Part shown: positions 33,900 through 59,847 of the stretch, piece by piece
Position numbering within the stretch: the first letter of the stretch is position 1
Layout: each line of letters opens with the position of its first letter
From: Yuukianura sp. NJ FZ-2021
Taxonomy: Eukaryota
Length of the DNA: 64,000 nucleotides
Reading direction: 5' to 3'
Assembly (NCBI GenBank): GCA_046563655.1
Contig: JAJCTO010000011.1
Location: 558,001 to 622,000, forward strand
Position numbers and translations under genes: made by a program
The notes under the pieces: model-generated
The model's database searches: none
Told to the model about the DNA's origin: nothing
The model's input: only the letters and a program-made list of their open reading frames with translations

Positions 33900-34388
33900 T
33901 CAATCAAGGCAACTAAGTAAAAAGACGCACCGCATTACTAAGGTAGTCTCACGAGCGGTTTTTTCAAGTTTTTTGGTGAGATTTTTTAGTGGGGCGGATT
34001 GTTTGTTTTTAACATTTCTCTCACAACGTTTTCCTTCCCGAAATCGTTGGATACAGTACAATGTAAATCCGTCCATTGTAACCACCGAATGCTGCCAATC
34101 ATCGGACCGGTGGTTTAGATTGGTTTCAGGATTGGAAATGGAATACAATGACGACAAAACTACGGGTGCGTAAAGTGGCTGCCTATTTCTACGTTGTTAA
34201 GATAACACTTTGAGTGCAATGTAGACTTAATGAAAACACTTGAGGCATACATAACCCCCCGAACAGAATGGAGCTATGTTTCATGGCAAAAAATCCTAAA
34301 AAGTGTGACGAACGGACAGAGACAAAGTCGTATCAATAGTCTTCTTCAGCATGTCGTAGACATTCGTCTCCAGCAGACTACTAATACC
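33900..34388 (-). pseudogene. Degenerate inverted paralogue of the secreted lipocalin-like family
   Basis: Translates in pieces as VMYASSVFIKSTLHSKCYLNNVEIG (compare CYGS..GGRLSYTWIYGNVRVG) and VVTMDGFTLYC...PLKNLTKK (compare IVWTDG...PRKRLKKK), with stops and frameshifts. Abuts the transposon at 34391. Confidence 0.55.
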
Positions 34389-34636
34389 TACCCACATAGC
34401 CATGGATCTTTGGGAGTTTTTTGGGCCAAATAAAATTTTAGATGTTTGGGAATGAAAGTGTTTTGTCTGCGATCCCAAGTGCGGCCCAAGTGGGACTTCC
34501 CACACTTCTCCCAACAATGTTTGAAACTGGTCCGAAATAGTTCCACACTTTCCAACTCATATCTGGTCCTTATCCGGATTTGAGATGAGGCCCTAATATT
34601 GAAAAAATATTCGTCCGGACTTAGGTCCCTTTAATA

Positions 34637-36315
34637 CCCAAGCCGCAAGGTTTGGCCTATTTTGTTCGGGCCAAGTTCGGTTTTTGTTTGGCATACATGG
34701 GAAACTCTGGCCAAACGGCATTCGCAAAATAAACTGGATTGGCCCGCACCCGGGCACTGTCAGGTCTGGGAGGGCCCACTTCCAAATTAGTGGGCCAATA
34801 AAGTGTATAGGACGGGGACCATTGAGTATGTGCCCCAGACAAGAGCCAAAGCTGGGCCGCTTCCATTACCCAGCTGCATTTGGCGCAGAATTGGCTAGAG
34901 TCTGGGCCAAGTTTGGAAAGCGTGAGTAGTGACATGCGCGGTGGGCGGCAGGTGGGGGTTTCACTTCTGGCGAGAAATAACTTTTTCCCTCCAAAAGTTT
35001 TACTAACTTTACAAAGGCTGTTTTCTTTTAATTTCTGCTTCTCTTGTTCTCGTTTGTCGGGTAACTAGAGTTTTTAGTTTTCGCTGGACAGAGTTTTCAG
35101 TTAACATGTAACTTTGTCATTACATGTCAGAAACATTATTAGAACCGTTTATTTTGTCAGTGACATGAGCAATGAGCTCAGTTCCTCATAACAGCAAAGC
35201 AGTTGTCCAGTTTGACTCAGACGATGGATCTTCGTTAGCAGTTATAGCATCCACCTGGCTAACGGAAGATCATACAGAGTGTTACTGGCCTCCACCGTCC
35301 ATTAATCCAACCAAAGTAGCACAAAGGAAAACCGATCCATTCGATAACCCAAAAAGGATCTGGTCACTTCAACGCTGTACAGTCTTAAAGTACTTTGGTA
35401 AGTAATTTATGAATTATAGATACTACATGATGCCAGTAATGTTGAAACAATGAATACACTATAAATCCCATCATAAGAATTTGAGGCTAACAATGTATTT
35501 CTTTTTTTATTGTTAGTTGACTTCTGGAAGGCACAGAGATACTGCGAAAGAGCAACGAAAACTACCGATCCGGAAGCAACTGACTGTGAGCTTAGGTCGA
35601 AACGGAAACGTACGTCGAAGAGATTGGATTTCTCTCCGTCTCGATCTCCATCTCCTCAGAAACGACTCGACAGTTCCAGTTCCAGTGAGAACGATCAACC
35701 AAAATACACCACTCCGGTTCAGAATTATGGTAAGCAACAGTATTATTGTAACTATTGTAACTAGCGATGGTTTCATATTCTACTGAACAGATAAAGTTAA
35801 TGTTAAAACATAAAGGGGTCAGTGTTATGTGTTACACAGTTATGGATTGCCTTATTTCTTTTTCTGTTTAGGTGGATTGACGGAAAAGCAATCGTCACAA
35901 ACTACGCCTAAAGCATTGGGTCAAGCCTTGTCTGATCGTCCCACTACTTCTACAACTGCAGAGGCCACAGTTAAATGTTAATGTTAAATGTTAATTTAAT
36001 GTTATAATTTAATTAAATTTTTAATAAAACAAAAGTATTGGTTTTCAACGTGATTTATTTTTGGACCAATTATGGAATAAGAGGAGAATGCTTACTTGGG
36101 CCAGAGTGGGATTTTACCGGAAAAAGTATTTCGCCTAAACAGGGCCATAATTAGACCGGAGTGGCCCGAGTGCGGGCTATTAGAGGCCGCATTCACGGGC
36201 TGAACCTGGGTCAGAATCTTGTCCCCTTCTTGCGCCGCGCGACATTTCCACACTTGGGCCAAACATTTGCCAAGCCTTGGCCCATTACACTTTATTCCAA
36301 ACCTTGCAGCTTGGG
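34637..36315 (+). mobile_element. Non-autonomous CMC/EnSpm-like element B nested in element A
   Basis: 19-bp TIRs CCCAAGC(C/T)GCAAGGTTTGG; 2-bp TSD TA (34635-34636, 36316-36317); GGGCC/GGCCC-rich subterminal regions. Confidence 0.9.
35172..35981 (+). CDS. Transposon accessory protein (182 aa; N-terminal domain of the type found in DUF4806-family proteins), exons 35172-35397, 35517-35729, 35872-35981
   Basis: AVVQF...LAVIASTWL....CYWPP motif, then DFWKAQRYCERATKTTD and a Ser/Arg-rich basic segment. Canonical GT-AG introns keep the frame. AATAAA near 36023. Confidence 0.7.
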
Positions 36316-36662
36316 TATTTGTTGATGTGGCCCATTAAATTTTTATCTTTTGGGCCAATTGTCTTTTCGCATATCAAAATAAATAATTGATACTCGCAGG
36401 AAAATTTTACATGGAAATACTTTTATTTCACAATAATGTACTAAATGGGATACAGGCATAATTAACTCGTGTTCTTGAGTTCTTATGGCTATGCAACATA
36501 ACACATTTTCTCTTTAACATACTTAAAGTACCTGTGCCTAGCTTTTTAAATCCAACGACTTTGAAAATCTCTAACTCAGAACTTTTTACAGGATAATTTT
36601 TTAAATCTTTAGCAATCGCTAACTTATAGTGTATTATATATATAATTGGAATTACTTTAAAC

Positions 36663-37290
36663 CTCGAAATTCTTCCACAAATCCGGTAAACTCAGCCCAT
36701 GTTGCAATGATGCATGCAGAGGTTTCAATGTTTCCAGTGAGGGAAGTACCTGTAAATACAATCGGGTTTAGTTATTAGACAGTTCTTACAGCAAAGGATA
36801 TAATATTTTGCAGTTAGTTGTCATATTAAACAAAAACATTTATGATATTTCCTTCTGTCACCTCGTCACCTTGTTCTGGTTCCTCTGAACTTGTATGTGG
36901 TCCACGATTACGAATATCGTTTTCGATATCACTGCGTTCACTTAAAGGTCATCAGTTACGAGCGCTCGCTTTGCCAAACGGACTGCTTCCTTCCTGGTTC
37001 CTAAAAAAGACGACACAACTGATTAGATATTGCTGATTATTTACATTTAACATTAAATCTAAATAACCCTGTTGAAAAGTAAAAAAATTGTACTTACTGC
37101 CTCCTGTTAGTTCAATACAAGGATGTACTGGCCATGAATCCAATGGAAGAGCGCACTTCTTTATCAATTGCTGAGCAGTTGGACCAGTTGGAAAGCGGCA
37201 AAAGGTTCTGTCGTCTGACAACCAGCTAGAAGGAACTGCTTCCACCACATTTTCTAACGGAAAACTGACAACCGAATATAATCGATCCAT
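36663..37290 (-). pseudogene. Degenerate accessory gene of element A (same family), exons 37290-37098, 37000-about 36851, 36749-36663
   Basis: YSVVSFPLENVVEAVPSSWL....CRFP motif. Exon 2 RTRKEAVRLAKRALVTDDL is followed by a stop/frameshift near 36943, and its donor appears mutated. Confidence 0.65.
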
Positions 37291-38532
37291 GACTGTTAAA
37301 CTAAATAATCTAACCAAAAACACTGAAATGAGCTCCTAACGGAAAAAGTTTGGAGTGTGAGCACGAGGAAGGTGGATGTTGCGTCATCCTTCTCTGCATT
37401 TTCATTTTTTGGTGATTCCCGCACTTGGCCCAAACAAGTGTCATTTCACTCAAAAAATATCGGCATAGTTTAAATGGCCCAAACTTCCCATGCCGTAATA
37501 CACCCAGGAGTACTCACACCAAGCTTGGGCGAAATACTAGTTTTGGAATATAACCCGGAACAGTATTTACCAGACAAATATCGCAAGTGGACCATACTAG
37601 TTCGAAAATTTTCGCCCAGAATAACGAATGATCCCAGACTTATAAATGGCCCGGACATTTTCCGATTAAAAATGTCCTCAAATATCCGTAAAAGTTATTT
37701 CCCCGAACAATACTATATTTCCCAAAACTCTCCCAAATTATGCTGGCTATGTGGGTAACCTGACCTAATCTTAATTAGAATCAAAAAAAAAAAAATTTCA
37801 AAAAAAAATTACAAAACACCTACATCAAAATTATGATTGAGGGTGAGGGAGGGTCTTACGATTTATGGAGTAAAGTGCTGGTCGATTTCATAGGACTAAT
37901 GGCGTGCTTCGTTCCACCACCACCACCACCGAATTTCTTAGGCCTTTCAGATGATTAGTTGGTCTCATGTAGTGTTGTTAGGTTGATTCTCGTTGATGTA
38001 AGGAAGAGGTGCATAGAACATCATTGTAATGCTAGTTACATCAAACAACGTTGTACCAATATGGTCAATTACGTTGTCACTCCAGCCGTAATAACCCTAG
38101 AGGTGTAGACGTTTAATCTAGTACTTGGTGGTACCAGGTTGGTATTGTACTGTGAGCACTGGTACAACAGAATGATGCTAAAACTTATCAACATTGTTGA
38201 GGTTACAATGGAGTCGGATAATTCTGTCGTTCAACCAAGTTTGTTTTGTATGAATTTGCGGTTTTGCGAATAACTTAGGTTACTAACTTCCCTACCTTTC
38301 GCTTTCACTACCGTACTTATACCTACGTATTATTTATTGATTTCAGGGAAGATAAGTGTTTCTAAGCGTTTTCCTGTGTTCTTTCAATTGAGGTCGACTC
38401 CGATAATCGTAGTCCGATTATTTATAAAATATTTAAAGTTTTATTTAGTAAGACCGGACAACCAAACTTTCGTGGTGCCTTTCTGAAACCAGGATAAGGT
38501 TCAATATTTCAATAAGCGTAAGGTTCAATAAA

Positions 38533-39537
38533 ATGAATCTGGCTAGATTGTGGAAACCTCAAGGTCATCTTATTAGGACTCCGATTAGTCCGATTATTGC
38601 CGTGGTAGGATCTACTCTTCTCTCGCACGAAGGCTCAACTTCATGTGTACCCTTGCGGCGTCAAGACGAAATATTCCGAAGATGGAAGGCAGATGATCGG
38701 AAAGAATTGGCAGCCTCGATGCCAAAGAAGGATATGGGGACGCAGGGCGAAACCGGGACAGACATAGGTCTCATTGGCAGGAGGTAATAAGTGCTAGTAA
38801 AGCTCTTTTTGTAATCTAAGCAATTGATTAGTCATACACCACTAATTGCAGTTTGATTTAGCAAGGATGACATGTTCCCTACTGCTGAGACTCCTGACAC
38901 TCTTTTTGACGGGGTACGTTTCGCTGATCTTCCAATTTGTCACATCAAAACCAGTCCAAATAACACAATCATAACTGTTACCAACTACAATGGAAGTGAG
39001 AGGCTGGGCTACCGGTCTTGCGGTATAGAAGGATTCAAAAACACGCGAAAAGGAACGAACATTGCTGCTCAGGCGACGGCCATCACATTAGGCAATGTAA
39101 GACTGGCCAACTGTTGAAAACGTTACGCCAGCAAACTGAAACACAAATCTGCCATATCTCAACAACACTAAAGAACCTCTTACGTGTTGTCCAAACCCCT
39201 CAAACCTGAAACCCCGATTTCAAAATCGGGGTTTAAGGTTTGAGGGGTTTCAAAATGTGTTTCAGTTTGTTTGGAGATTATTAACTACCCAATAATACGG
39301 AGGTCATTTGACTGTGCAGTGTATCTATTTCTACCTACAGCTGATTCCGCTTTTTGACTACAGGATCTTGTGAAGAAGAGTGTGAAAACACTTCGAGTCA
39401 AAATCCAAGGCCTCGGTCCGGGACGTATGAGTTCAGTAAAGGGACTTCAAATGGCCGGTCTCAACATTGTTTCCGTGACGGATAACACACCCATCTCCTC
39501 CAATCCACCACGAGGAAAGAAACAGCGGAGAATCTAA
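38533..39537 (+). CDS. mRpS11: Mitochondrial 28S ribosomal protein S11; exons 38533-38783, 38862-39096, 39364-39537
   Basis: [24 protein letters not shown]...[22 protein letters not shown] and [33 protein letters not shown] are uS11m motifs; N-terminal presequence-like segment; GT-AG introns in frame. Confidence 0.96.
39128..39274. mobile_element. Small palindromic MITE remnant in mRpS11 intron 2
   Basis: Outer inverted repeat CAAACTGAAACACA / TGTGTTTCAGTTTG; inner near-perfect 28-bp hairpin at 39193-39250. TSD not clear. Confidence 0.65.
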
Positions 39538-39659
39538 CATCCAAGTTTTGTACCAAAAATGTTTTGTTTGTTAAGTCCGTTTATTATAGAATCACAGTTG
39601 ATGCGATTGTTTTGTTGAGGAATGTAGAGTACATGTACTTCCGGAAATAGACTTGTAAT

Positions 39660-42220
39660 TTATTGATTGTTGTTGAGACTCACGGATGAGAGGGACAACG
39701 GGTGTGGTTTGGGGCTCACGCGAAGGTTGCGTCCAGACGTGTGGTTCGTTGTTGGCCTCAACTCCAATCGAACGCTTCCGGGAACTCCCGAGTTGTCCAG
39801 GGCGTAGAAAACGTTTGCGTTTGCGGGGAATTTAAGTTCTTTATTAGCGAGAACTTGGACGAGTGAGAAGCGACGAGGTTCCTCTCCTTCGAAACCCAAC
39901 TTTTCCAGCGCTTGGGCTATCACTTGCGGCGTGTGGTCCGAATTACTGACAATCATAGATTTGTACATTACATCTGATTTGGCTGGTGATGAAACTTTCA
40001 CAACGACTGATGTTTCCGGCGAGGGGGAAGTGAGTCCGGGTACGACTGGTGGCGCCTCTGAGTAACCCATGGAACTTTCGTTTGAACTCTGGATTGAACC
40101 CTAAATAGAACATAAATACAATCACATAATAATATAATAATAATTGGATTTCAAATTACAAATTACCTTTCGAGTGGGGGGAATTCCCAAAACGCTCTCC
40201 GTATTTTCCGACGATGAGTTTGAAGCAAAAGAGTCGCTCTTGCGATGTCCTTTTGGTGGAACCCGTTCAGTTTGAATTGCGACAGACAAGTCGTAAGCAG
40301 CCTTGTCATCCAACACTGTTAAAGAGTTGTACCACGACGTGAAGTACGGATCCTCTTCTAGGCGATATCCTTTGGCAGACCCTTGTAGGAGCTTCAGCTG
40401 AGCTAACACTTCAAATTCCTTTTTTCGTTTGTCAAAGTTGATGAGTGTTCCGTGTACGTAGTCTGGGTATGCAGCGTCAATGAAAGTCAAATCAGTGAGG
40501 AATGTACCAAGATAAGGAATCGTCCCATTCGGGGAGTCGAATTCTGCCGTCGTGCCTCTCGTGCCATGACTTGAGCGTAGAACCCTTGATAGGAATCTTC
40601 TGTCCTTTGGACTCTTGGTGGGCGTAGGGAATTTGGCTGTTCCCTCGGCTTCCAGAAGACTCCGTTGTGCCATTCGGTTGTTGTCTTCGGAGAAGATTTG
40701 GGATAATTGTGAGTAAATGGTCAGGCGGTCCTTGGAGACGAGATGCCAGAGCTTGGAGAGGCGAAAGATTGGGTTTGACTCCAGGCCTGCAATGATGGCT
40801 TTCAACGACGAAAAATTCTTGAGCTGCCGTAATTCCTGCAATTAATGCAATTTAACGTCATTCCTGCCCAACAACTACAAGAAAAAAAAGCAGTGTTTTC
40901 CCGAAATCCCACCTGAGCAATTCGAATCCATTTCTCGAGTGTTTTCGCCCTTTGTTGCAGAGGTAACGTCGGATCAACCAGAATCGTGGCCACAACACGT
41001 CCGGAAAGTGCATTGAACTGCTCAACTGTTGCCGCTACAGAAGCACATCCGCACCTTCGCTTCCACAAGCCTCCCAAACATTCCCAAACACGCAAATTAA
41101 GAAATAGTTCCTAAAAACATGGACTTGTGTTAAGACGAATTGTATATATGGTATGTTTTGCTTCAAAATGTGTCACCTTATCATAGTAGGTGAGCTGTTG
41201 TGCAAAATGTGATTCCGGTATGGCCAAGAGTGAGTACGTTCGAATGTTCTGCGGCGAGAAAGTACGTAGAGAGTGCAGACTGCTAGACTTCCTCATCTTG
41301 CGCCGTGATCTCAGTTTATATTGAATTTTTAGTGCCAGAGAAGTGAGTCCTTGATCTTGTGCAAATGGCAGGATGACTTTACGTAAACAGTGGTAACCAT
41401 CCCCTCCGGATTCGAAATCTTCAGAATAAGAGTCGAGCCATGCATTGAGACAGTCCAGCATCACCCTATAATGATGAAATACTCCGAGTAAGGTCAATGC
41501 TACTTTATAACAAAGAACAAACATGGGCTAATTAGGCTCAGCTACCTTGATTTGACTTACTTTCGTAGTGAGTCTTGACTTGAGTGCTTGTAGAGGAAGA
41601 TGATTTCTTGTAGTACTTCAGTCGGAGTTGCAAAGGCACGATACGTAGCTAAGAACACGCTCAGATGCGTCGCCTACTCAAAAACAGTTTATTTTTTTCT
41701 CAGTAGAATAACTTCATGTGACTGTATACACAACTTCAGTTACTTTCCCTCACCTGGACATCGCTGTCCTCGTTCGACATGGCTTCAACTATTCGTCGAA
41801 GCGTTCCGGCTCTGAGCACTCGCACACGAACAGTTTCCCACATCAAATGAGCAATTTCTCCTTGGTCAGAGTCCACTTCATCAATGACGACGTCGCACGA
41901 AGAGGTGGTGCAGGACGTAATTCCGCTTGAGCGTCCTAACGACTGACTGTGGCTTGGCCCGGAAGAAGATGAAGACGGATAGTTGGTAACCACTTGGACT
42001 AAGACAGAAGGCCTCTGGTAGCGAATCTTTTTCAAATACACGCCCCATACGGCATCATCTTCCACCTCCTCGGTCCACTGTGTCGTATCCTTTTGGTTAC
42101 ATAAGTTCATGATTATGTAGTAAATCCAATATTTGTTCAAATAATGATCAGCGGAACCTTTAAACTTACGGAACTTGGTACTTGGAATCCATGACCACCA
42201 GAGCTATCATAGGTTTCCAT
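39660..42220 (-). CDS. Rgl: Ral guanine nucleotide dissociation stimulator-like (RalGDS/RGL); exons 42220-42170, 42089-41754, 41673-41561, 41465-41177, 41110-40913, 40835-40167, 40100-39660
   Basis: N-terminal EEVEDDAVWGVYLKKIRY; REM domain (RVLRAGTL, VFLATYRAF); CDC25 GEF domain (LKNFSSLKAII, GTIPYLGTFLTDLTFID, INFDKRKKEFEVL); C-terminal RA domain (YKSMIVSNSDHT, PANANVFYAL). All splice phases are consistent. Confidence 0.95.
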
Positions 42221-43214
42221 GAAATTTTTGTGCAACTCTCCACCGCCTGTTGCTTTAGTCTTCAGACTTGACGTTTGACAGAGTCTCCTAGTTTCTTATA
42301 ACTCAATACCGCATTGAATCCTTGAAACAAAAAGTAAACCACAGTTATGGAACACTGGGTCTGAATATAATCGACTGAGAGAAGACGGAAGCGGAATACA
42401 TGATTGATGATAACGAATAACGCAACACGGTTACGTGGTGACGGTGAGCCTGCTCGGCTTGTTTAAACTGTGTGTTTACATGTGTTAAACCCTCAAATCA
42501 GGAGGGTATTCCGTTAGTTGCTTGTCCAAGGAATTAACGATCCACTCCACGTTGCAGTAGTATTTCATGGGTCATCTGCATGAAAATCTGAGTAAAAATG
42601 TAATTTGCAATGACACCGAATCCACCGAAGTTGGGGAAGCCTCCAGTGTTCTGCAATACACGAAATAAAAGTACATTAGCGTGATTATTCTGGTGATGTG
42701 ACCCTTATTTATTCAGGGTCCCGTCGCAATCGTTCCTCGTCTCAAAAGTCGTCTAAATTAATTGCTAAGGAAATTCATAATTAGACATAACGTGAAATTG
42801 AGTTAAGTGCCACTCACTTCTTACCAAACAATAATTGAATTCGTTTCTTCCAGCAACAGTAGGTTAAGGATCAAGAATAATCCAGTATCCAGTCCTGATT
42901 CATTTATACATTACACTTTAAACTGTTCCTTGCTTTCCCTTTTAATTAAAAACTGAAAGTGAAATTGAAAACCAAGGATAGTATGATGAGTTGGTTGACG
43001 TAAGCGTAACGACACTTGTTGTTACCACTAAATATCGTGGCACCGCACTCCAATGCCGATTGTAAAGACTGCGCGGTATCAAAAATATGTCAAAGCAGTC
43101 TTAATCAAGATCCAAAAAAATATCCCATCATAAGGAGCGGTCGGTTAAATCAAATCCTTTCATTTTTCCGAACTTTTAAAATACGAAACACTTTATTCAA
43201 CTGCAGTTATTACG

Positions 43215-45295
43215 TTATTTTCTCTGATAGATCTGAATATAGGGTTCGGTGAGGGTTAGCATCTGAGGCAGGATTTCTTTGACATGCAAATCCTGCAGTT
43301 CGTACCAAGTAGAATTGGCATGATGATACATCTGCATGCGCCAAGTCCCTCGCTTGGGCTGCCCCTCATGGACGACATTGGCGATGAGGTCGTAGGGCGC
43401 AGACGGAAGTCCGAAAGCTTCTCCAAAGTCCACGGAGAGCACTGGGAAGTTGACGATGGTGGGATTCTTCTCAATGAAGAACGTATTCTTCGTGAAGCGA
43501 CGGATGTACAGGATGAGGAACGGAGGAAGCGATGTCACTTGGAAACGCTTCAAAAAGTTTTCCTTGTAAGTGTTGTACTCCTTTGCCTCATTTCCGTTGA
43601 ATTTTCCGAGGAGAGTGTACAGGTTTACCTGAAGTCAAACAAAAACGTTTAAAGAAAGTAAGTGCAATTAGATAACTAACGATTAGCTAACCTGTGGGAT
43701 GATGTTCTCCATCATTTCGTTCTTGAAAAGCGGAGTTGGGGGAAGGTCGCATGTTAAATACAGAAAAGACGTTTCTTCCACTTGCTCCTCCTCCTCTGCC
43801 TTGTCCTTTTCAATTCGCCGTGTAAACACTTTCATTTTGCCCAAAAAAGTCTTGTAGATAATGCTGCTCCTTGGGTTTCTAAGAAAGTAGTGTAAACCTT
43901 TGAGTAAACTTTACAATGGAAAGTGCGAGAATGGCTGATGAATTAAACGTACTTGTTCCCATTGAGAGCCTTGTGAAGTGCGTTGAGAAGCCAGCTGAGG
44001 AATGTGATTGGGTCTCCTTGGGCTGTAATTTGGAATTGCTTCTTGGAGCAAAGTACCACAGCTTGCAGCATTTCATGTGGACTCACGTGAACTTTGAAGT
44101 TACGGGGATTCCATAGCTTTCGCATCAACTCACCGAAGCGCTGAACAAGTAGGAAGCTAAGAATATCATACGTTCAATATTAGCCGCAGTACCACAAACG
44201 CAGCACTTCTTCGAATCAATGGATACTTTAAAATCAATGAATAAACTGTAATGTTGTGACCTACCTGTTTTCTCCCGGAGGTCGCTTGACACCAGAGTAA
44301 CTCTCCTCTCTGAGAAAATAGTCCCTAAGTGGTTTCACGTGACACAAGGCCTGGAGAATAACGTTGCAATAATCGTTGGCCTTTATGTTGTTCAGACCGA
44401 CCACACCAGGCAAATACATGGATCCATCAATTGCTCGTGATTCCTAAACTTTCATATTCAATTCAACTGACAAACCAACGGTTAATCAACAACAATCTTA
44501 AGGTAATCAATTCATGCTTACCTTCGCAGTTGAATCCAATGCGCTGATGTAGTTCTTCGTAAAAATAGGGTTAACGACGTATTTAATGTCATCCAACGAG
44601 GAGTCTAAATCGGTGTAAAAATAGCGTAGATTAAAATAAATGAGTTCTGGTAATAGGTTGAGTTAAAGTGTGCCCCAACCCATCTTATACCTATGATCTC
44701 GTAGTTATCTGGTAAACAGTAGAATTTGAGAGTGTGCAAATTAAGATAGACATGATGAAAATCCGCGACACTATGTGTATGGGCATGCGTCGAAATTCCC
44801 CGGCCCTGGAAGTACTTGCCACAGACAAGGCAAGCGTAAACGTTGATCCGAGAAAGGGAGACAGAGCATAGCTTCTCAAAGTCAAAATCCAGTACGCTTC
44901 TGTCAATCGTATCCAAGTAGGGGCATTGACCTGTAAATGTGCATAATCGTCTTATCAATTCCGAATGTATTTTTAAGTCATATGTTCAAATCCAAGACAG
45001 GACGAAAGTATCAAACCGAATTTTCGGTATAATTCGTCGGTAAGGAATCCAACCTTACCTACAACGATACTGCTATATCAAACAATAGAAGCAGTAAAGC
45101 CCATTCCTTTTGGTCTTTCTTGATTCAATGTTTACGTCTAAGTAATTTACAGGACATCAGTTGGGTTTACTTACGTGGTTTGAATCCGAGTTTGGGCTGT
45201 GAATCTTCCAAGTCCAGTGCACCGTCATCGTCGGGTGTATTTGGGTTGTCCAATTTGAGCTTCTTCCTGGGCAAGTTATCGTCACTGTCCGACAT
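43215..45295 (-). CDS. Usp39: U4/U6.U5 tri-snRNP-associated protein 2 (USP39/Sad1); exons 45295-45175, 44930-44691, 44604-44522, 44443-44265, 44156-43953, 43878-43692, 43628-43215
   Basis: CPYLDTIDRSVLDFDFEKLCSVSLS (ZnF-UBP), GLNNIKANDYCNV (inactive Cys box), LWNPRNFKVHVSPHEMLQAV, EKNPTIVNFP. Confidence 0.97.
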
Positions 45296-46588
45296 GGTCA
45301 ACAAATGAACAGCGTATCTAATTAATCTCCGGTTAATTAAAAGTCGACAAACACGACTATGTAATGTAAACTCGCTCTTCCGGTTGGAGTCTGGGCGAAT
45401 TAAACCCATCGTAACCACATAGTGTAATTTCCACTCATTGTACTAAGGTCGCGGCGATTTGATAACCAATAAGACGTCGATATTTACACGTAAAATTTAG
45501 AACGTATTTATTAGGTTACATTCGTTTTAGCCATGCATTGTATCCATATGGTGGTTATAAATATGGCGTCGATGGTTAAACTTTGTGGTTACGACGAGCG
45601 TAATTCGCGTTGTGTCATCCCATGCTATGTTTGGTGTATATCGCTCTCCACTAAAGCTCTGAAAACCAGATATGCATGTGATGGGACTTGCCAATCGTCG
45701 GACGCCGCAAGTGTGAACGAGATGAGTTTTGTGTAGACGCGGACTGCTGTGGACATGACTAAAAATCTCTGTAAGTCGTAGTTGATACTAACAAGGTTAA
45801 GATTACCGTCAATTTGCTGTCATCTTTAGTGAATGGGATAACTGGAATATCGTAATCTTTGTACACTGATAGGATGTAGCGATGTAACTAGGTACGCATT
45901 CAATCATATGCGCATGCAAAGCTTCTAAATATATTGCAAAGCTCCAATTTTGCCCAGTGAAAACTTCAGGCGTGTTTTGGACTCAAAAATTGTTAGACGC
46001 AAAAACTTGGAGGTCATTTCGAACATTTCCCCATTTTTTTTAGGTTACTCTCTGACTTAGGTTAATACAGACCATAACAAAATACTTCCCGCATGAAGGT
46101 GACAAAAACAGGCGTAATTTTTTACAGGTCTGCATTGCTCGGTCACTTCGTTTTCTGGACTTTAGAAGTAAATAATCTGGCAAAAAAAGCAACGCTTTGG
46201 GTATCTTTGGGTAAAAAAAAACTTTTCCCCTGCAGACTTTCCGAAAACGGTTGAATCTCATCCAAACTTGCAATTCACCAATTCAAAGACGTTGTGCCAA
46301 GCAAACCCATGAATATTTTTTTCTTGGTCAGAGACGTTTGTAAGTAACCACCTGTAGAAATTTAACTTAACACTTATTTTCGTTTAAATCAGTTGAACCT
46401 TTGCATGTCATTAGCAGGAGAGCTTATTGAATTTTTGTGCTTTCACTTTGAAAGCGTTCCGTAGTGAAAGTAACATGGAACTAGAAAGTGGAGGTTCTCT
46501 CGTCGTCTCTGCTCAACTCCCTGGCTCTCATGGCTCACCTCAGCAGATGGGTTGAGTCGAGCAGAAGAGAGGAGAGATGACACGGGCG

Positions 46589-46761
46589 GTCAGTCGCAAA
46601 CAACACACCGTCAGATCCACTACGTTTCCGTCGTCTCTTCATTTAGTGAACAACAGTGTTTCCGTTGCCACTCATACTCGCTGCTTCCACGTATTCGCCA
46701 GAGCAACTGCCCTTTGACCTACGCAACACACTTCGTTCCAGCCATATTCTCCAAATGGAAG
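46589..46761 (+). promoter_or_regulatory. Putative initiator and non-coding first exon of FAM20C
   Basis: TCAGTC Inr-like motif near 46590 after a GA-rich tract, and donor AAG|GTAACT at 46761/46762. A splice acceptor TTGCAG at 56111 lies just upstream of the FAM20C ATG. The link between the two is inference. Confidence 0.35.
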
Positions 46762-49700
46762 GTAACTTGCAACTTTCAATCACTAAAACTGTATAATCCG
46801 TAATCTCTTTCTTGGCGTACTAAGTTCATTTCTCCGGAACTCAGAAAACTTGTAATTGGTGTTTAAGTATTGAGTTCAAGTAATTGGTGACTTCCACCGA
46901 AGGTCAACCAGACTACGGCCGGTCAACAATAAGGATACTTTGTGACAGTGAATTATTAGAAGCATAGTATTGGGAATAATAAGGTTAGTCAGCATTAACT
47001 TCAGAAGAGCGGAGCTTGATGTTGGTTATTGGTTGACGAGGTCGGATGAGAATGAGATGAGAGCATTTCTTTTGTAAAAGGAACTGTCATTAGACATCAA
47101 AGTAAAAAGGAAGAGATGACATCGACATCTCCAGAACTCGAGAGTTTCGAGTCCATTACTTCCTTGAAAGAGGGAACACACAAACTAGATCACAGACGGA
47201 CGTCGGTTTCGGTTTTACAAAGGTGGACGTTGGTCAGGAGGCGGATTCAATTCGTTTCAAAAGACGGAGAAAAGCTGTGGAGTTTTCGTCAGCATGAGAA
47301 AGTCTGAAGCGAATTCAATATCATTGCAGTGCCAGTACTGCTGAACTTGCATGATACAGTTGCTGGGTATCATATTTTTGTAAACCTTTACGTTCAGAGG
47401 TGAATGAAGCCCTGATGCGACTGCGCACTGATCAGGTCATTTTGATTAGTTGTAAGTGTCAACTTAAAATGGCGGCATGATTGTAATGCCGTGTGCCAAC
47501 TCAGGGAACTCATTATTTCCCAAGTCGTGTGCTACAGATTAGGTTGTGGTTTGGTTTGACAATGCCGAATGTCAATTAGTGCAATTATCTTCCGAACCGA
47601 CTTCTGTGTTTTAGGGTGGGACTTGTATGTTTTCAGGATGAGAGTTACAGTTTGAGAGTTGTGAAGTCAATTAAAGATTCTTGTAGGCACCCGGACCAAG
47701 CAAATGAAGGGCTTTCATTAACTGGTTTAATGACTAGGAGTCTCTGCTGTCGTGTTCTGAGAGTGACATGGGGAGGCCACAATCGTTATTTATTACGTTT
47801 TCACCGGCGGTTTTGTGGTTGCTTGCTTTTTCCCCACTTGAGATTATGCGGGTCTTTGAATTTGTATGGGACAATGGAACGCGTTTGTCAATTTGTCATG
47901 TGGCGAATTATTGGAAACCTCTCGGTTTCTGACTAGAAATGTTCCAGATTTTTGATTAAAGCGGCATTTGACAAGGACACAATGACACACTACTGCAATG
48001 TCATCCCTTTGTTTGCTTTTGACAACACTCATTTTTACTTGCAGTCGTTTCGTTTGCTCTGTCCTCCTCGTTATCCCTAGTTTGTGTGGAAAGTCGTGCA
48101 CTTCAATCGATTTAACTCAAGTTGAAAATTTCCATCTCATTGTTAAAATTTTTGATTGCATTGTTTAAGCAAAGACAGGTCGAAGGAAGCGGAAGTCGGT
48201 GCGGGATGGCTTAACACTTTCGTTTGCATGACAAAGTAACAATACACTCTTCATCCTTGTCTTTGTGCAGAATACTCGCGGAAAAAAAATCTTTACCAGA
48301 GTGCTAAAATTGACAATGGATTTATCACTTGTTTTCTTGACCTTCACAAGTTGTGAATCTCGCCTCGTTATTTTTTAGAAGTTTGAATGCATTTACAGTA
48401 CCCTATTTAAAATAAGCCACATTATGGTTTTACGCGCAGTGTGTCTGTCTGTCCGTTTCCTTCTTATTCTGTATGCAGTGTTTCGGTTACGCAATGGTGC
48501 TTTAAAGCAAAACCAGAGGTCAAAGTTAAGCGAAAGAAGGAAGGACAGGTTTTCATGGTTGCTGTTTTTGTTTTTTAGTGTTTATTGTTTTAAAAATCAT
48601 CAATTAATTTATTTGTAAAAGTATTTAACGGGAAAGCAGTAGACCTTTGAGCAGAATTTTTGCGAAAACAATCCTCTTTTTTTAAAATCGAAAATCAAAG
48701 GTTAATGGTTTTGAAGTTGAGTGTAGTGTGGGTGTGCTACTTTTGGGAGATTAGGTTTTGGAAAAATTGCAACGCAAGAGAAGACGGGATAATTTTCCTT
48801 TTCGTCGAAAGAATAAGAATGTGTTGTTAGATTGGAAATGTGTATTCCGCACGAGTGACGAGTGGAGTAAAGTGTGTTCTAAGTGATGAACTCTGATTGT
48901 TTGGATTGGATTATTAGGCTCTGGTTCTCGGTCGGATGCGTCGACAGACTGGGATATGTGATGTGAGCAACCACGACGAGAGAGTGATGGCAATTAGCAC
49001 GTGGAGAGCATGGCAGAGTCCGCAATCTCCGGTCGTTGCTTCCTTCTTCTTTTTTGTAGGAATCCCTCATTCTTTTCTGGTTTGAGTCCAGGTCAGTTGG
49101 GGTCAAATCCTCAAATCCTGTTTGAGCCAACTCTTCTCACGACCAATTTTCCAACTTGAAGAAACAGAGAACAACTTAATGTGTTCAGTTGGAGGAATAC
49201 ATAGCATTACTGCGTCTGTACACAATACTTGAGAATCCCCTGTCCCACTGGCCCCATGTTTCACTTGTTTCTGGGACAGATCTAGTACATGGTTTTATGA
49301 CGTGTATTGGATTCGTGGGAACATTCAGTTTTTGCGATTTGTGGTCGGAGTGACCTTGTACGATGGCTTACTACAACTCTTTCTGCTTTCTTCGTCAGAT
49401 TCAGATATGAATTATGGGGATACTTTGTCCATCTTCTCTTGAATCTTCCTTATGACATGGTAGCTACGTTGTCCATTTGATTTCGACGAGGGGATTAAAG
49501 TATCTGCTATAGATTTAGCGTCCATGTGTGAAGTAATTTAACATGGCAAGAGCATGAGCCCAGCCCAAGCAAGCCAGTCTACCTGCTTAAGACTCTCAAG
49601 CAAAAGTCAAATTAGATTTGTTGATTTTGTTGAATGCTGTTAAGGTTCAGAAGTTATTCGGAACATGATGCTTAAAGATTCTTTTTAAAAGGGAAATCAG

Positions 49701-50950
49701 TTGTTTAAGAAAGTGTTAGCAAATTTTTGAGGTTGAGGAAGAATGTTAGCGGTGTTAGTGAACTGTGGGGGTTGAGCTGGTGATGTTATTGTTTGCGTTC
49801 TTCCTGGAAGGGCTCCATTGTTTTGCCAACTTCATTTGAAGGTAGTGCATGCTTGTCAGAATAAGAACAATGGTTTTGCGATGAGGAGGAGGAACAGGAC
49901 GGTGAGGGAGATCAAGAACACTATCTTGTACTAGCGGCACAATTGGCCATTCCACGTCCTCAGTTATGAACTTGGCAGTGAACCATTTTGAGTCGTGTAG
50001 TAAGTGTCGCTCAACTTCATCATTCATTTTCTGTCAATTTGCTACTACAAATAATACTCTGGTTGTAGAAGAGTCTTGACTGGTTTCTGCGCATGTCCAG
50101 TGCAAATTGCAGTTTCAGTGAATTCGATGACAAAGAGATTACCTTGGTAAAGTAATTTTTGGAGGTGAGTAGAAGAATTACAGAGTTTTGTAATCATAAT
50201 CCTACATAATCTGTATGAGTTGCGTTTTGGTCCATTTGATTTGTCACATGTTCTATAGTCAAAACACATTACAATTTCACAGTGTACCAGTTGTGTGATT
50301 TGAAGTAATTTAGCTGTTTTGTGATTGTGAGGACAAAGATTCGAGCCAAGGTCACCTCCTTTCCACTTTCACTGCACTCTGAATGAGTGGGAATCAGCGG
50401 AAGTGAGGCAGTTCTGTCGGATTACTTTGTTCGAGAGGTTGAATTTGCCACGATTAGTTTCTAGTTTAGTCTGCTCCAAACTGTCCACCCTCTGCTTCTA
50501 CAGGAAGTCACTTTTTGGTGTTGCAAATTTTCGATATTTCGGACTTTTGGTATTTCTCAGTTGACTTTTGACATTTGGTGTGAGAGGTCACGAAGCGACT
50601 TGGTGAAAGGAAACCGGAGGCTCCGTCCGGCGTGCCTAGCATCCAATTTATCATTCTCCGATTGTAGTCCTCCGAGGAAACACCTCCAAGTGAAAGTTCA
50701 TTTGCGAAGACGCTCTTGTTGACTCTGAGCAGCATTTGTCAACTGCCACTTTCACGCCTTAAGTCCCTCACTTCATTGTCACAACGCACTCTCCTGCCAC
50801 AAAGTCCGTGTCTTTAAATGAAAAAAATACCATAGAAACAGGTAAAAAGCTTTTTGGTATTTGTCTTCTTGTATGTCAAGGAATCGGACATCCCCGTGTC
50901 TCATTTTTTGCAATAACACCCACGTCCTTAAGTGTACTACTGTACATTGT

Positions 50951-52556
50951 CCCATGTTACCAAGTCGTACGGAATATGTACATACTTAGTGAATATAAGT
51001 GCGTTATGCTCGAGTGAGGTTTTGCCCAAATTTCATATGCATTTTCGGTGCGTAAACTTTTGTACACAAAATGCACGGAGAAAGGAGCGCTGCATAAGAA
51101 TGCCTTACCGAATCGGTACATAAAATTTCTGCATATAAACGGCACTGCTCATGTGAATACAATTCATTTAGCTTTTGTACGCGAAATATCCACTAAAATG
51201 ATAGCAAGATCTACTCGGTTTCTGATCAAATTAATTTTTATTAATCAATATTGTGAAAGATAAAGTATCAACAAAATACTAATTATTACACAGTGGAATA
51301 CAAAACATCTTTCTCTTAAAGGGTAAACAAATACACTTTGTCCTTAAGTAATCTTTACTAACAGTTTCTTGTTTTGTTGACAATGCTTGTCTGACCAGTT
51401 GGAGTAACTCGGCAAATTTCTGCTCAAAGTAGCCTGATTCTCAAGGACAGCTTGTTGGAATTCTAAAAGTAAACAAGAACAGTCATAACTGGGAATACGA
51501 AATTGAGTAGTATGATAAGCGTAATTACATAAGAATTTACCTCGAAACTCGTATTGTTCTTCCTCGATGCTATATTGCAGTTGCTGAATCGTGTGCTCCA
51601 GTTCATCGATAGATACAGTATTGACAGATGTAAGATTCAGTGGAGCTGCTTCATTGACTGCTTCTAAAATAAACAACAACACAACTAAAGTTTTGTTTGT
51701 TTAATGAGGTCAAACTGTTGCATGACACTCACCTTGTGACTCCGTCAAGTTATGGTCAAATGTGTGAAGACCAGATTCAGCTCCACTTTTGAAGTTCGCA
51801 GAGAGTTGGATTTTTTTTAACGCTTTTTCATGTGAAACTGAAAAAAAAATCAACAAGCGTTTATTAATCAAAATCCTAAGGAAGGTTGGTTAATAGAATA
51901 GTTAGTAGTTCAATAACAACTAAAGTACTAATTAGCTTACCAAATGATTTGACGTATTCAATGTCGTACTTTCTGCAGTCCTTCTCTGGCTTGGAGTCAG
52001 CCGATGCAGCCAGTTCGCTTACGTTTTTGGTTAGTTTTGATGGCCAGTGACACCGTATTTGGTCGTCATCAAACGCTACCCATGATGAGGGAACAACTGA
52101 AAACCTATTTTCCGCTTTGAAAAACACAACTGAAAAGTTTTCGTAGTGTGTGGTCCCCATCACGGACGAGTTGAAGACAAAACTAAACCACTTTGTTTAA
52201 AACTTAACGGACAAACGAACTTCTGTTATATACTTTTTCAGCACCTATAATTCACCACTAAATACTCTCAGAAAGAGAAATGAGAATCACTCACATAAAC
52301 CGCACATAAATCTCACACCAATGTGCATGAGTGCAGAAGAAGCGCTGAATATGTACGGATTATTTCCGAAGGTTTTATTTGCGACAATTTAAGTGCATTT
52401 TGTATACTTTTTAAATATCTGAGGTATCAGTATACAAAAAATCCGAACCATTTAAGTGCATAAATGGCAATGCAAAAAGAGTAACGCTATATTCCATACA
52501 GTTTGGTTACGAAATATTCCAGATATTCACAAAATATTCACCAATGGTAAGATGGG
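50951..52556 (-). mobile_element. Non-autonomous CMC/EnSpm-like element C
   Basis: TIRs CCCAT(G/C)TTACCA; 2-bp TSD GT (50949-50950, 52557-52558); 1.6 kb; carries an accessory-type gene only. Confidence 0.8.
51344..52160 (-). CDS. Transposon accessory protein (188 aa, same family); exons 52160-51941, 51837-51733, 51663-51541, 51462-51344
   Basis: FSVVFFKAENRFSVVPSSWV....CHWP motif; three phase-1 GT-AG introns keep an open frame; coiled-coil-like IDELEHTIQQLQYSIEEEQYEFREFQQAVLENQ. Confidence 0.7.
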
Positions 52557-53503
52557 GTGTGCTTTGAAAAGTCACTCATCCTAGGAAATGTCACTTTCAA
52601 ACTGAAAAATCGGGCAGATTTTTTTTTTTTGAAAATTTTTCGGCAGTAGGATGAGATGAGCAATTTTTGATGGTTTTTGAAGTCACTTGGGATTTCAGGG
52701 CACGTTAGAGAAGCTTGCGCCTGAGCATAATGCCCATGTAGAAAAACGAATCGTGCCGTTCTCAATTTCCAGCGGAATCTAATTTCTTTGAATTTGGCGC
52801 CTCTTTGCTCAAGTCGAGGATGGAATTTTTGATTGGGTTTAAGGAGGAAGTTGGTATGGGAAACACAGAGTTCGAATGTGGAAGGAAATTGGAATGATGG
52901 GAATTTTGCGATCAAGGAATTGGCGAATTCCGTTGGTATTTGACATCTTCCTCTCTGCTAAATGATTTTCCCAAACCCATAAATTCGTTGCGCAGTGGCC
53001 TCGCAGGAGCCAACCTTCCTCCTCGTCTTTTTTTTTTGGCAAAATTGAGAAAAGTTCTGCTCAGATGATCTCAAGGAATTTGACACGGCCTTTGCCAATT
53101 TGAAACATTTTTGGAAAGACAAGCTAAGATTGGTTTATGCTCTTGATTTGTATCTTTGGAAAAATCTCTTGACGTGGAACTTTTGAAGGGAGATTCTGCT
53201 GGATGGAGGAGGATGTTTGGATCAATTAGGTCGAGTGTTTTTATCTCTTTTCGTTTTTGTTCTGCTGAACTAGGCAAAGTGTTTGATTTGAATTTTGTAG
53301 AGTTTGACAGAGAGAAGTCCAGGGTTTAAGTTAGAGTCGATTAGTGTTATCCCTTGTGCCAAAGTTTGTGTTGCTGGACCTTGGTTTTTAGCAAAGACTT
53401 TGTTGGCAAAGTGTGAACGACCTCGCCCTGCCTCCCCACCTTCCTTTCTGCAATCGTGCAAAATAATGCGAAAAGAGGAAAAGTGGTTTTAAGGAGATTA
53501 TTA

Positions 53504-56138: not shown

Positions 56139-59100
56139 ATGAAGTGGAAAGAGCGCGTGGGGCTGGCCCTGTCGGGTGCGCTCATTTGCCTCACGCTTCT
56201 TCTCATCTTGGACGTCCACTACCGAATTCGGAATGGACAGCTCAGTCCAGTATCGGATTTTGACACCCTTCCCACAGACAGTACGCCGATTGCCGTGCCG
56301 GATGCTGGTGGGGAGGTGGGGCATGTGGTAGCACACGGACCGGGAGGAGACACAGCAGAGAATCAGTACGCAAACAGTAAACTGACGAATGGAGCTAGAT
56401 TGGGCCTTGAAGGTACGCGCAATGAGCGGGAAACGGATGGAATTGACGTGAAGCAGGACAAAGTCAAGTATGTTGCGCCCAACAACCTCTCTGAAATTTT
56501 CAGTCAACCGTAAGTTCAATTGAAACAAGATTTCAAGAACTTGTAACTCACAAAATTCATTAATCGAACTTAACTTTGAGAAATTATGATCTTTGTTAGA
56601 TTGACATTGAATGAGGTGGAGAAGGTGGATGTGTTTGAAGACTTGGAGGCCATGTTGGATCCGAAAGGGAAAGGCTACGTGATTCTCGATGGGGTTGAGA
56701 GGGACAATCCAAGTGTTGGCGACATGCTCCAGATTGACACCAAGTGAGTGTTTGCTCTACTGTTGCTAGGCAACCGTTTAATTCCCTAATGCGCTCATTA
56801 CAAATACTAATACTCACTATGCCCCACTTTTTTTAAAATTCGGTCAAAACCAATCTCCAAATTGGCACCGTGTTCCTGCACGTTTCTACTTAATCCATGT
56901 TTGATGTTTGACAGAGGAAGCCTTTCAAACCTTACTTCAAGTTGAGCAATCCACTCAACTCGATTGTACAAACTTATGCTTGAAGCAAAAGTTCCATTTA
57001 GGGTGCCACTTTATTTGCCATTTCGGGAGTGGCGCCGATTTGGAAAAACGAATCTCTGTTTTAAGGTGCCTGGAGGAAACATAAATCATCCACCATCTGG
57101 TTTCTGCAGAGTCGTTTTGATTATGAATTGATTTAAAAGTTTCCGCTCCCAGTTGCTGGGAAGAGAGAAAGTGGGAATTTGAAATGCTGGGGAGTCATCT
57201 TGACTTTCTCCAACTTTGGCTTCTTTTTCCATGCAAAGTTTTTCCCGTTTCTACGAGGATTTATGACGCCTCTGCCTTTTTTTTTCTTCAGTGGCTTGAT
57301 TAGAAAAGTTTCGTTTCCCAGTTGTTGGCCAAAAATCAGAAGATGGATTTTTGGTCTGGAGGCGTACAGGCTTGTCTCCCATTTTGGTGGATGGGCACAG
57401 TGAATTCACTTTTAACAAGAATCTTTCTCTGGGAGTAGTGGAGACAGATGAGCTGCGTTTGCGCTAATGAAATTAATTAAAACCGAAAACCGGTTCAGTA
57501 ACTCAGGAGCTCTGGAGCTCCAGGAACAAGGGTTTCAAAACAAAGGGAAGACAACTTCTGGTACAAGTTACACTGTGGGACATTTCTGTAAGGAGTGTTT
57601 CCATTGTTAGAGAGTAATTTTCCCAGTTTCGGTCACTTTTTGGGATTTTCGCTCTGAACGATCTGACCGAAATATTCAAGTATGCGTACCCGTTGTGTAC
57701 GGTATTTGGCCACGCCTCCAAAGTTTTCGAGTCTACCACGCCTAGTTTACGGCTAAATTAAGTTTCGGTCATTTCGGTCGACTGAAATTTGCGGGATTTG
57801 AAATGTCCAACAAACGGTTTCGGTCACTTTTTACGAAATATTATTTATGACCGAAATTTCCAATGTCGGAAATTGTGAAAAACACTTGTCGTTTTTGTCA
57901 TTTTTCAAAGTAGCATTTTTTTTATGAAGAATGGACTTGACTCCAAACCTACGGCGTTTACCTGTCCTTCCGTCTATCGGTATCGTCCGAAATTTTCGTC
58001 AAGTCCGAACAAGAGACTCCAGTCTTTTACACTAACCATTCTGCTAAAAATTCATAGTAAAATTGTTGATGCAGGGTCTTTTACCTGCACGAATTGTGCT
58101 CGAACATGAGTTTGCATTCATTCAACAACGAACTTCATGGAAATGTGGACGCACTTGCCATGAGTGTATTAGTGCCTAGAATTGAAGCAGTTGATTAATG
58201 GATGGCGATGGTATGCATTTTGAGACACACTAAAAATGCTAAAGAGACTTTTCTTTTGACAGCGCCAAGCCGAATCTGACGAGCTTCGAAAAGTTCCAAC
58301 TGCTCATTCGAAAGCAGAGCATGTACCAGGAGAGCGATGGGATTCTAGAGGATTTACTACATGCCATGGCCACTGAGGAAATTGTGCATTTGGAGCAGAA
58401 GGAGGGTGGGACACAGTTGAAGCTGATCATGGACTACGAGTCCAGTGGACAAGCCATGTTCAAACCCATGAGGTCAGAGGTCAAACCTTATAAATGATGA
58501 CTCGAATCAGAAAAATGACTTATGAATCTTCGTCAGACAATGACATTTCGTTTTGGTTTTCAGATTCGGTCGAGAGCAGGAAACCCTCCCAAACCACTTT
58601 TACTTCACCGACTTTGAGCGCCATAATGCCGAAATTGCAGCCTTCCACTTGGACCGAGTCCTTGGTTTCTATCGGTAACTTAAAAAAAACTCTTTATGCT
58701 TAATAAGATTTGCTTCAAGCTAATTAGAATATCGCAGTTATTGCAAAATTTGTGTTGGTTTTTGTACAGTGCGCCCCCTGTTTCTGGTCGTCTGCTGAAT
58801 ATTTCGTCCGAAATTTACCCCTTGGCGGAGGGTCAACTTCTCCATACGTTCTTCGTGTCGCCCGCAGGAAACATTTGCTTCCACGGAAAGTGTTCCTACT
58901 ACTGCGACACCTCACACGCCATTTGTGGGAAGCCGGATATGCTAGAGGGGTCATTGGCTGCTTTCCTTCCTCCAAAAGGTGACTTGAGCAATTTAAGGTC
59001 TACCGAATTCCACTGTATTCATGGTTTGAATTTGAATTTGTTACAGAGGCAGCTTCCAGGAAAGTGTGGAGGCATCCCTGGCGACGATCATATCACAAAC

Positions 59101-59847
59101 GACGAAAGGCTCAGTGGGAAGCGGATGCTGACTACTGTGATATAATTCGCTCCACTCCACCTTACGACAGGGGCAGGAGACTCCTTGACATTGTGGTAAT
59201 TGAAATTCTTACAGGAAGCATAGACTTTAATTGAATATAGACTTTAATGTAACAAGGAATCGAACAACATGATATCCCGAGATGGAAAAAATCCAAAGTG
59301 CTAAAATTGGGCCTTCAATATCTGAATTTCAATTTGCAGGATATGGCTATTCTTGATTTTTTGATGGGAAACATGGACAGACATCATTACGAAACTTTTA
59401 AAATGTATGGAAACGACACTTTTTTAATTCACTTGGATCACGGAAGAGCATTCGGGCGAGCGAAACATGACGAAGTGTCTATTCTTGCCCCACTCTATCA
59501 GTGCTGTATCATCAGGAAGTCCACTTTGGACAAACTGCTAAGGTTTGCGATCAATTTTGTGAAATTCTAGTAACAAGTTAAGTTGGAGTTAAATACTTAA
59601 GTTAAATATTATAATTCATTGTCGCAGGTTTCACAAAGGACCTGTTCACTTAAGTGAGGCGCTGCGAAAATCACTAAACAAGGACCCCTTGGATCCCATC
59701 TTACTGGAACCTCATCTCGTTGCTTTGGACAGGAGGACGCAGACGATTCTGCAGACAGTACGTCACTGTGTTCAGCAACGTAAAGAAGCGGGAACGGGAA
59801 GCGGAGAGCCAGGGTTGGACGAAATTATTATTGACGATGGTTTTTGA
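56139..59847 (+). CDS. Fam20C: Golgi secretory-pathway kinase FAM20C; exons approximately 56139-56509, 56600-56743, 58263-58472, 58564-58674, 58770-58978, 59048-59195, 59340-59542, 59628-59847
   Basis: N-terminal signal anchor; [106 protein letters not shown]. Confidence 0.96.

Follow-up and report, generated by a model that had tools for sequence, protein, structure and literature searches.

In a 64,000-nucleotide (nt) stretch of contig JAJCTO010000011.1 from Yuukianura sp. NJ FZ-2021 (contig positions 558,001 to 622,000), we analyzed three DNA elements, A, B, and C, and the single short spliced gene that each of them carries, which we refer to as the mini-gene (Table 1). The whole stretch is called the window, and all positions are counted from its first letter.

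Three elements without transposase

All six termini of A, B, and C read CCC or GGG, and each terminal inverted repeat (TIR) pattern was found in the 64-kb window only at the two ends of its own element. None of 100 shuffles for A and none of 100 for B gave two TIR matches, and 7 of 100 did so for C, whose TIR is therefore weak when taken alone. The inverted match between the arms of A reaches 49 nt at 73%, or 43 nt at 81%. Apart from one 18-bp match, the DNA of the three elements showed no similarity among them at E≤0.01, in line with a preliminary description of this DNA that reported a different TIR for each element; A, B, and C thus represent three families. Once B and one copy of TA are subtracted, A measures 1684 bp, so all three elements have the size of 1.6-1.7 kb proposed earlier. 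We found no transposase in A, B, or C, where the mini-gene is the sole long open reading frame (ORF), and the only transposase-like ORF in the whole window was one decayed Tc1/mariner-type remnant at 28.1-29.5 kb. The hexamer TGGGCC/GGCCCA occurred six times in A and seven times in B, always within ~330 bp of an element end, and three times in the remaining 33,029 non-satellite bases. These subterminal repeats of A and B are likely protein-binding sites.

We aligned contigs from four public DNA runs (X1, X2, X3, and X5; three from one sample and one under a second organism label) to window positions 34000-53000. In all four runs, contigs joined position 34634 to 36316, skipping 1681 letters, which is the length of B plus 2, with two letters fitting both sides. 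Because the contig pieces joining across B were 5-10% diverged, we regard them as other copies of A that do not contain B. Contigs from three of the four runs (X1, X2, and X3) joined 50948 to 52557 and skipped 1608 letters, again the length of the element plus 2, to give an empty site for C. The depth at this joint was about half of the flank depth, so C looks polymorphic in the sample, and since the same sample holds the empty site, C moved recently or remains polymorphic. For A, one X5 contig terminated precisely at the right end of the element, 37755, and no empty-site joint was present among 15 of the 35 contig joints. Termini and 2-bp target site duplications (TSDs) are established for B and C, which the contig joints cross exactly, and well supported for A, and the earlier account of three transposase-less CCC...GGG elements with 2-bp TSDs stands. 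Summed contig depth over the elements was ~1.5-5x that of the flanks, a sum that is not equal to copy number. In X1, X2, and X3, C-family copies elsewhere also carry 34 nt inserted where exon 3 begins (51662), and the insert resembles a local duplication of adjoining sequence.

The mini-gene consists of three exons encoding 182 amino acids (aa) in B and of four exons encoding 188 aa in C, and by GT..AG gene models both frames are open once spliced. All introns of B and C are canonical GT..AG introns with pyrimidine tracts. Phase 1 was assigned to every intron of C and to the first intron of A and of B, which places a phase-1 intron directly after the N-terminal domain (N-domain) in all three genes. 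AATAAA follows the stop codon in B (Table 1) and, at 51242-51237 on the minus strand, in C. A later exon of A and exon 3 of C share an exon end, EFR directly before the donor gt (EFR/gt), and B lacks the helix (coiled-coil) exon that A and C retain. The phase-1 intron after the N-domain, the EFR/gt ends in A and C, the open frames of B and C, and the poly(A) signal of B had been described earlier, and all were recovered in our gene models. In the phase-consistent frame, exon 2 of A is interrupted by a stop after 19 codons, and the other plausible frame contains two stops; A is a pseudogene. In A, B, and C, the start of the gene lies 396-535 bp from one element end. A six-frame translation of the window contained the motif W.{4,9}C.[WF]P at three places, one in exon 1 of each element.

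Table 1. Elements A, B, and C and the parts of their mini-genes, in window positions. E values are from an N-terminal profile of full-length homologs.
Feature	Positions	Strand	Remarks
Element A	34391-37755	- (gene)	3365 bp; gene decayed; TIR CCCACATAGCCA 12/12; flanks TA/TA
Element B	34637-36315	+	1679 bp; inside left arm of A; 19-bp TIR 18/19; TSD TA/TA
Element C	50951-52556	-	1606 bp; TIR CCCAT[G/C]TTACCA 11/12; TSD GT/GT
B exon 1, Tudor-like N-domain	35172-35397	+	75 codons + 1 nt; phase-1 donor gtaagt; profile E 2e-15
B exon 2, basic/Ser-rich linker with KRKR-type cluster	35517-35729	+	acceptor ttttttattgttag; donor gtaagc
B exon 3, including stop codon	35872-35981	+	AATAAA at 36023
A exon 1, N-domain	37098-37290	-	intact; 64 codons + 1 nt; donor gtaagt; profile E 7.6e-19
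A downstream exon remnants	36664-37000 (approximate)	-	linker exon with stops; helix exon ending EFR/gt
C exon 1, N-domain	51941-52160	-	73 codons + 1 nt; Cys at codon 62; profile E 3.5e-13
C exon 2, linker with A8 run	51733-51837	-	one A absent from about half the contig depth of the C family
C exon 3, heptad-like helix	51541-51663	-	ends EFR/gt
C exon 4, including stop codon	51344-51462	-	no detectable DUF4806 similarity; AATAAA ~100 nt beyond
Subterminal TGGGCC/GGCCCA (TTGGGCCAA-like) repeats, sample	34391-34900		end regions of A and B

The mini-gene product and DUF4806 proteins

A Pfam scan of the three first exons returned no family at E≤10. A profile of these exons matched 747 proteins at E≤1e-3 among the 1.84 billion searched. 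Among 150 listed matches, 111 are of 125 aa or less, and the frames of matches of this size end at a median of 3 residues beyond the column aligned with the end of B exon 1; in a closer set of homologs, 5 of 10 read G-K at the end of exon 1, as a GGTAAG donor would if it were read through. The short-frame ends and the G-K residues fit a conserved exon boundary. Ten of the 28 listed matches of at least 166 aa carry DUF4806 (PF16064) near the C terminus at E≤0.01, four of them above the Pfam cut-off, and all ten are among the 14 listed matches of 284-483 aa. Two of the same 28 carry a dynamin-type GTPase in place of DUF4806. An N-terminal profile from 12 full-length homologs detected the first exons of A, B, and C in the window, at E values of 1e-13 to 1e-19 and with the next match at E 0.8, which agrees with the assignment of the N-terminal motif to DUF4806-type proteins in the preliminary description.

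DUF4806 is a subtype of the BEN domain, as credited to Pan et al. 2023 in passages of 10.1101/2023.12.06.570431 and PMC10789644. The N-domain spans ~65 aa, and full-length arthropod relatives of ~300-480 aa end in DUF4806. The full-length relative P0033 has the BEN part and is 49% identical to exon 1 of A; the N-domains of A, B, and C are 22-30% identical in pairwise comparison. A profile of the coiled-coil and DUF4806 part, again from 12 homologs, reached a best E of 3.8 against the six-frame translation of the window, with no match inside the elements. These comparisons support the view that the genes of A, B, and C are truncated members of the DUF4806 family, all of them without the BEN/DUF4806 part.

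Further searches gave weak negatives: no match among longer proteins with C exon 1 as the query, none to transposase fusions when the alignment was searched against longer proteins, and none among near-length proteins close to C exon 1. In the ESM Atlas, 29 of 30 named matches were arthropod hypothetical or DUF4806 clusters, with no transposase family co-occurring. A metagenome scan returned two loci, one on a 1486-nt eukaryote-like contig (L001) with exon 1 only and no informative context and one (L002) that we rejected as a spurious match on a GC-rich bacterial contig, and none of 25 pattern matches in a viral scan was confirmed. Among non-arthropod-looking homologs (in the set P0002, P0042, P0003, P0006, P0010, and P0007), we observed the N-domain as a tandem pair, and in two of these homologs it precedes a dynamin-family GTPase and not DUF4806. 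In view of the tandem copies and the pairing with a dynamin-family GTPase, the N-domain is a mobile module.

The AlphaFold 2 (AF2) model of B exon 1, from a 114-row alignment, is a small beta-barrel with a predicted local distance difference test (pLDDT) score of 80. Foldseek returned no match to the N-domain model in the PDB at E≤0.001. Compared with 48,161 representative chains, the model reached Z≥2 in just nine, and the top three were Tudor domains, those of ARID4B (Z 5.3, root mean square deviation 1.9, 47 aligned), RBBP1 (Z 4.4), and JMJD2C (Z 4.3), followed by the next chain at 2.5, although a Z below 8 may reflect a common arrangement. This weak resemblance is suggestive of a Tudor-like fold. 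For the full-length homolog P0122, the model (pLDDT 70.6) shows the same barrel together with a linker that is disordered, a long helix (residues 170-204), and a helical C-terminal domain. The best nine of nine Foldseek rows for this model were BEN domains on DNA, including Insv (4ix7_A; probability 0.99, template modeling score 0.62 by target), with E values all ~0.2, and BEND6 was the top PDB match by sequence (E 0.037). As modeled, DUF4806 is a BEN-like DNA-binding domain, and C exon 3 would sit where the P0122 model has its long helix.

Probable deletion derivatives and proposed selection on the mini-gene

With moderate confidence, we consider A, B, and C to be non-autonomous cut-and-paste deletion derivatives that are moved in trans and belong to three families of one group. 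Such a group would be characterized by CCC...GGG ends, 2-bp TSDs, and subterminal repeats, and its cargo gene would encode a protein of three parts, in which a long helix lies between a Tudor-like beta-barrel at the N terminus and a BEN-type (DUF4806) DNA-binding domain at the C terminus. Internal deletion would have removed the BEN part in A, B, and C and the helix as well in B, sparing the promoter, exon 1 together with its conserved phase-1 intron, and a linker of variable length, and a transposase encoded elsewhere would mobilize the elements in trans. The shared design is best explained in this manner, with no selection on the protein. Deletions that spare both ends would tend to spare exon 1 because the gene starts near an end, beside the terminal region required in cis, and a narrow size optimum for trans-mobilization may lead to the similar lengths of 1.6-1.7 kb. 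For Transib, passages of the bioRxiv preprint 10.64898/2026.08.26.747230 describe deletion derivatives of ~1.4 kb that were enriched independently in two lineages and propose a size optimum for trans-mobilization. In the full-length protein, the BEN domain may bind the subterminal repeats while the Tudor-like domain may touch chromatin or a partner, and a BEN-less product could act by protein contacts only. The short proteins, with the Tudor-like domain and linker, with or without the helix, and with no DNA-binding domain, would most likely be neutral leftovers that decay copy by copy.

Several observations weigh against a deletion origin of this kind. The frames of B and C are fully open, with clean GT..AG introns and a poly(A) signal, and are tidier than random breakpoints require, and the last conserved exon of A and that of C stop at the identical EFR/gt boundary. 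Proteins of 175-207 aa with the N-domain and no DUF4806 match (P0050, P0100, and P0114) were found in other genomes and are possibly of the same mini-gene type. No full-length or autonomous partner was seen, and deletion is deduced from protein homologs and not from a parent element. Furthermore, among the 10 best-supported differences listed for B, a tiny and pre-selected sample, one falls in 549 exon bases (35602, synonymous) and three fall in 261 intron bases, all three in the much shorter intron 1.

The same open frames, whose splice sites and poly(A) signals are intact, the exon end common to A and C, the synonymous nature of the sole listed exon difference in B, and the short N-domain proteins elsewhere, along with the N-domain exon and intron kept in three unrelated families, favor an alternative in which the mini-gene is selected and its DNA-binding-less protein works in trans. 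This protein would poison or titrate the full-length Tudor-BEN factor, or it would be a chromatin or anti-silencing factor that aids the spread of the mini-elements. We consider this alternative unlikely in light of variation among copies, which we counted in contig depth units. In the C family, the A8 run of exon 2 at 51811 was short by one A in 607 of 1217 units in X1, 206 of 433 in X2, 186 of 186 in X3, and 19 of 29 in X5, a 1-bp deletion that ends the C-family frame at 103 aa. Codon 62 of C (51975) aligns with a near-invariant Trp column of the protein family; it encodes Trp in 582 of 752, 140 of 161, 235 of 235, and 25 of 25 units in the four runs and Cys in the window copy. Internal deletions in other copies drop exon 1 of C (51814 to 52298), exon 1 of B (35176 to 35539), or most of C exon 4 (51367 to 51550). 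The gene of A is broken, and truncation points differ because B is without the coiled-coil exon kept by A and C, so that B and C retain different parts; summed depth is also low. Because the C insertion is young, and polymorphic as well, its open frame needs no selection and carries little weight. The contig evidence thus weighs mostly against selection on the mini-gene. The stops in A, the C-family frameshift, the Trp-to-Cys change, the exon 1 deletions, and the differing cut points speak against the earlier proposal that the mini-protein is retained by selection. Of the signs of ordinary deletion derivatives that had been named together with this proposal, a frameshift and differing internal deletions were observed.

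KP elements of the Drosophila P family keep the DNA-binding THAP domain and repress by competition for sites. Like KP, the elements in the window would be deletion derivatives that encode an N-terminal fragment of an element protein with a potential to act in trans; unlike in KP, the DNA-binding domain, here BEN, is the part that is lost. A bolder and decidedly improbable version of selection is that an undescribed group of arthropod DNA transposons with CCC ends and 2-bp TSDs uses a Tudor-BEN protein as an accessory factor for end binding or chromatin handling and that mini-elements repeatedly kept a BEN-less trans-acting version of this factor as a poison subunit or anti-silencing decoy. If true, this would constitute a KP-like regulatory layer with the opposite domain logic.

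We find it very unlikely that nothing was deleted and that the mini-gene is a naturally short, N-domain-only paralog, with the gene-only 1.6-kb layout native to long-lived non-autonomous lineages. The low identity among the N-domains does imply old lineages, the domain occurs without a DUF4806 match in other proteins of 175-207 aa, and a longer parent was not seen. However, the BEN part is present in the closest full-length relatives, such as P0033, the genes of A and C retain an exon at the position of the helix that precedes BEN and then end, and incomplete gene models may account for the short proteins in the database. In addition, long-lived non-autonomous lineages with TIRs of their own would need a function, whereas the copies show decay. 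Finally, Pack-type capture, with three transposons each acquiring a 5' portion of a DUF4806 gene from the host, accords with fly and fish annotations, which list DUF4806 genes as ordinary ones (passages of PMC10789644 and 10.1101/2023.12.06.570431), but is highly improbable, since it demands three independent captures of one gene part, each with a start codon 396-535 bp from an end and an intron, all three occurrences of the domain in the window sit inside TIR elements, and expansion of the DUF4806 family in Hydra parallels that of transposase domains (a passage of PMC7642931).

Known systems, neighborhood, and significance

Mirage elements end in CCC, and piggyBac elements combine CCC...GGG termini with a TTAA target duplication. 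We ruled out piggyBac for A, B, and C, as their TSDs are 2 bp (TA, TA, and GT) and the contig joints skip the element plus 2 letters, not TTAA. Tc1/mariner was ruled out by the TSD of C, which is GT (TA in A and B), and a link to the neighboring Tc1/mariner-type remnant was rejected, as the remnant has neither CCC ends nor TIRs. With regard to CMC elements, A, B, and C resemble them in 2-bp TSDs and subterminal repeats, and these TSDs fall within the CMC range of 2-4 or 2-5 bp given in passages of 10.64898/2026.08.26.747230 and PMC12730594. In contrast, the termini are CCC...GGG in all three elements and not of the CMC type CAC...GTG (CA..TG); 5'-CAC...GTG-3' ends are called invariable for Chapaev and CACTA in passages of PMC4079192 and PMC6004678. 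TSDs of 2 bp are also compatible with some PIF/ISL2EU-type lineages, for which a passage of PMC12730594 gives TSDs of 0, 2, or 3 bp. The transposase of CMC elements is a DDE enzyme with C(2)C and H(3-4)H motifs. A CMC/EnSpm assignment is not supported, and because the elements have no transposase, we assign them to no superfamily.

TnpA of En/Spm is the accessory DNA-binding protein of a two-gene transposon. A Myb-like protein is likewise described as an accessory factor of PIF/Harbinger in a passage on Nuwa (PMC12730594). By analogy, a Tudor-BEN protein may plausibly have a comparable role, as a non-catalytic, sequence-specific DNA-binding protein beside cis-acting subterminal repeats, but it has no sequence relation to TnpA or the Myb-like protein, its binding to TGGGCC is putative, and no transposase gene is linked to it. 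Deletion derivatives of the Ds/dSpm type, such as Kodama from Nozomi (passages of 10.64898/2026.08.26.747230), are like A, B, and C in their TIRs, TSDs, empty sites, and lack of transposase, and as described there they also keep terminal regions and a gene stump, with unrelated lineages converging on a short length. The elements in the window differ from this type in that no parent was seen, in that the stump derives from an accessory-type gene and not from a transposase gene, and in that their combination of termini and TSD matches none of the superfamilies compared here. The mini-genes also share a homologous N terminus with DUF4806 proteins, whose C-terminal domain models as the BEN fold of BEN-solo proteins (Insensitive, Bsg25A, BANP, and BEND6), but they are themselves without BEN, and the literature, in the passages that bear on this point, treats those proteins as host factors and not as transposon cargo. 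A literature search on DUF4806 and on the BEN domain with DNA transposons returned no paper tying DUF4806 or BEN proteins to TIR transposons.

Elsewhere in the window, a satellite of 155 bp in 171 tandem copies (97% matches) occupies positions 1-26595, with uniform composition and a GC skew of ~+0.27. The decayed Tc1/mariner-type transposase remnant (28161-29478, minus strand) matches HTH_Tnp_Tc3_2 at E 1.5e-6 and has no recognizable TIRs. Positions 34000-34380 hold a very high-copy repeat, with summed contig depth ~200x that of its flanks, that stops 10 bp before A; copies of this repeat stop at 34380, past which come A/T-rich letters that vary from copy to copy. The repeat resembles the 3' terminus of a retroposon of the short or long interspersed nuclear element (SINE/LINE) type. 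Spliced host exons at 39660-44985 (minus strand) and 58684-59145 (plus strand) encode RalGDS-like (RasGEF and RA), USP39-like (zf-UBP and UCH), and Fam20C-like proteins. Judged by these spliced host exons and by the nearest ESM Atlas clusters, which are from arthropods, the window belongs to an arthropod-like eukaryotic genome.

Arthropods, Hydra, and fish have many DUF4806 proteins, which are regarded as products of host genes of unknown role. In the window, members of this family reside within mobile TIR elements for which empty sites are demonstrated. A mobile location helps to explain expansions in copy number of the family and cautions against calling such expansions host adaptation. Our analysis also raises the idea that a protein combining BEN DNA binding with a Tudor-like domain may act as a transposon accessory factor.

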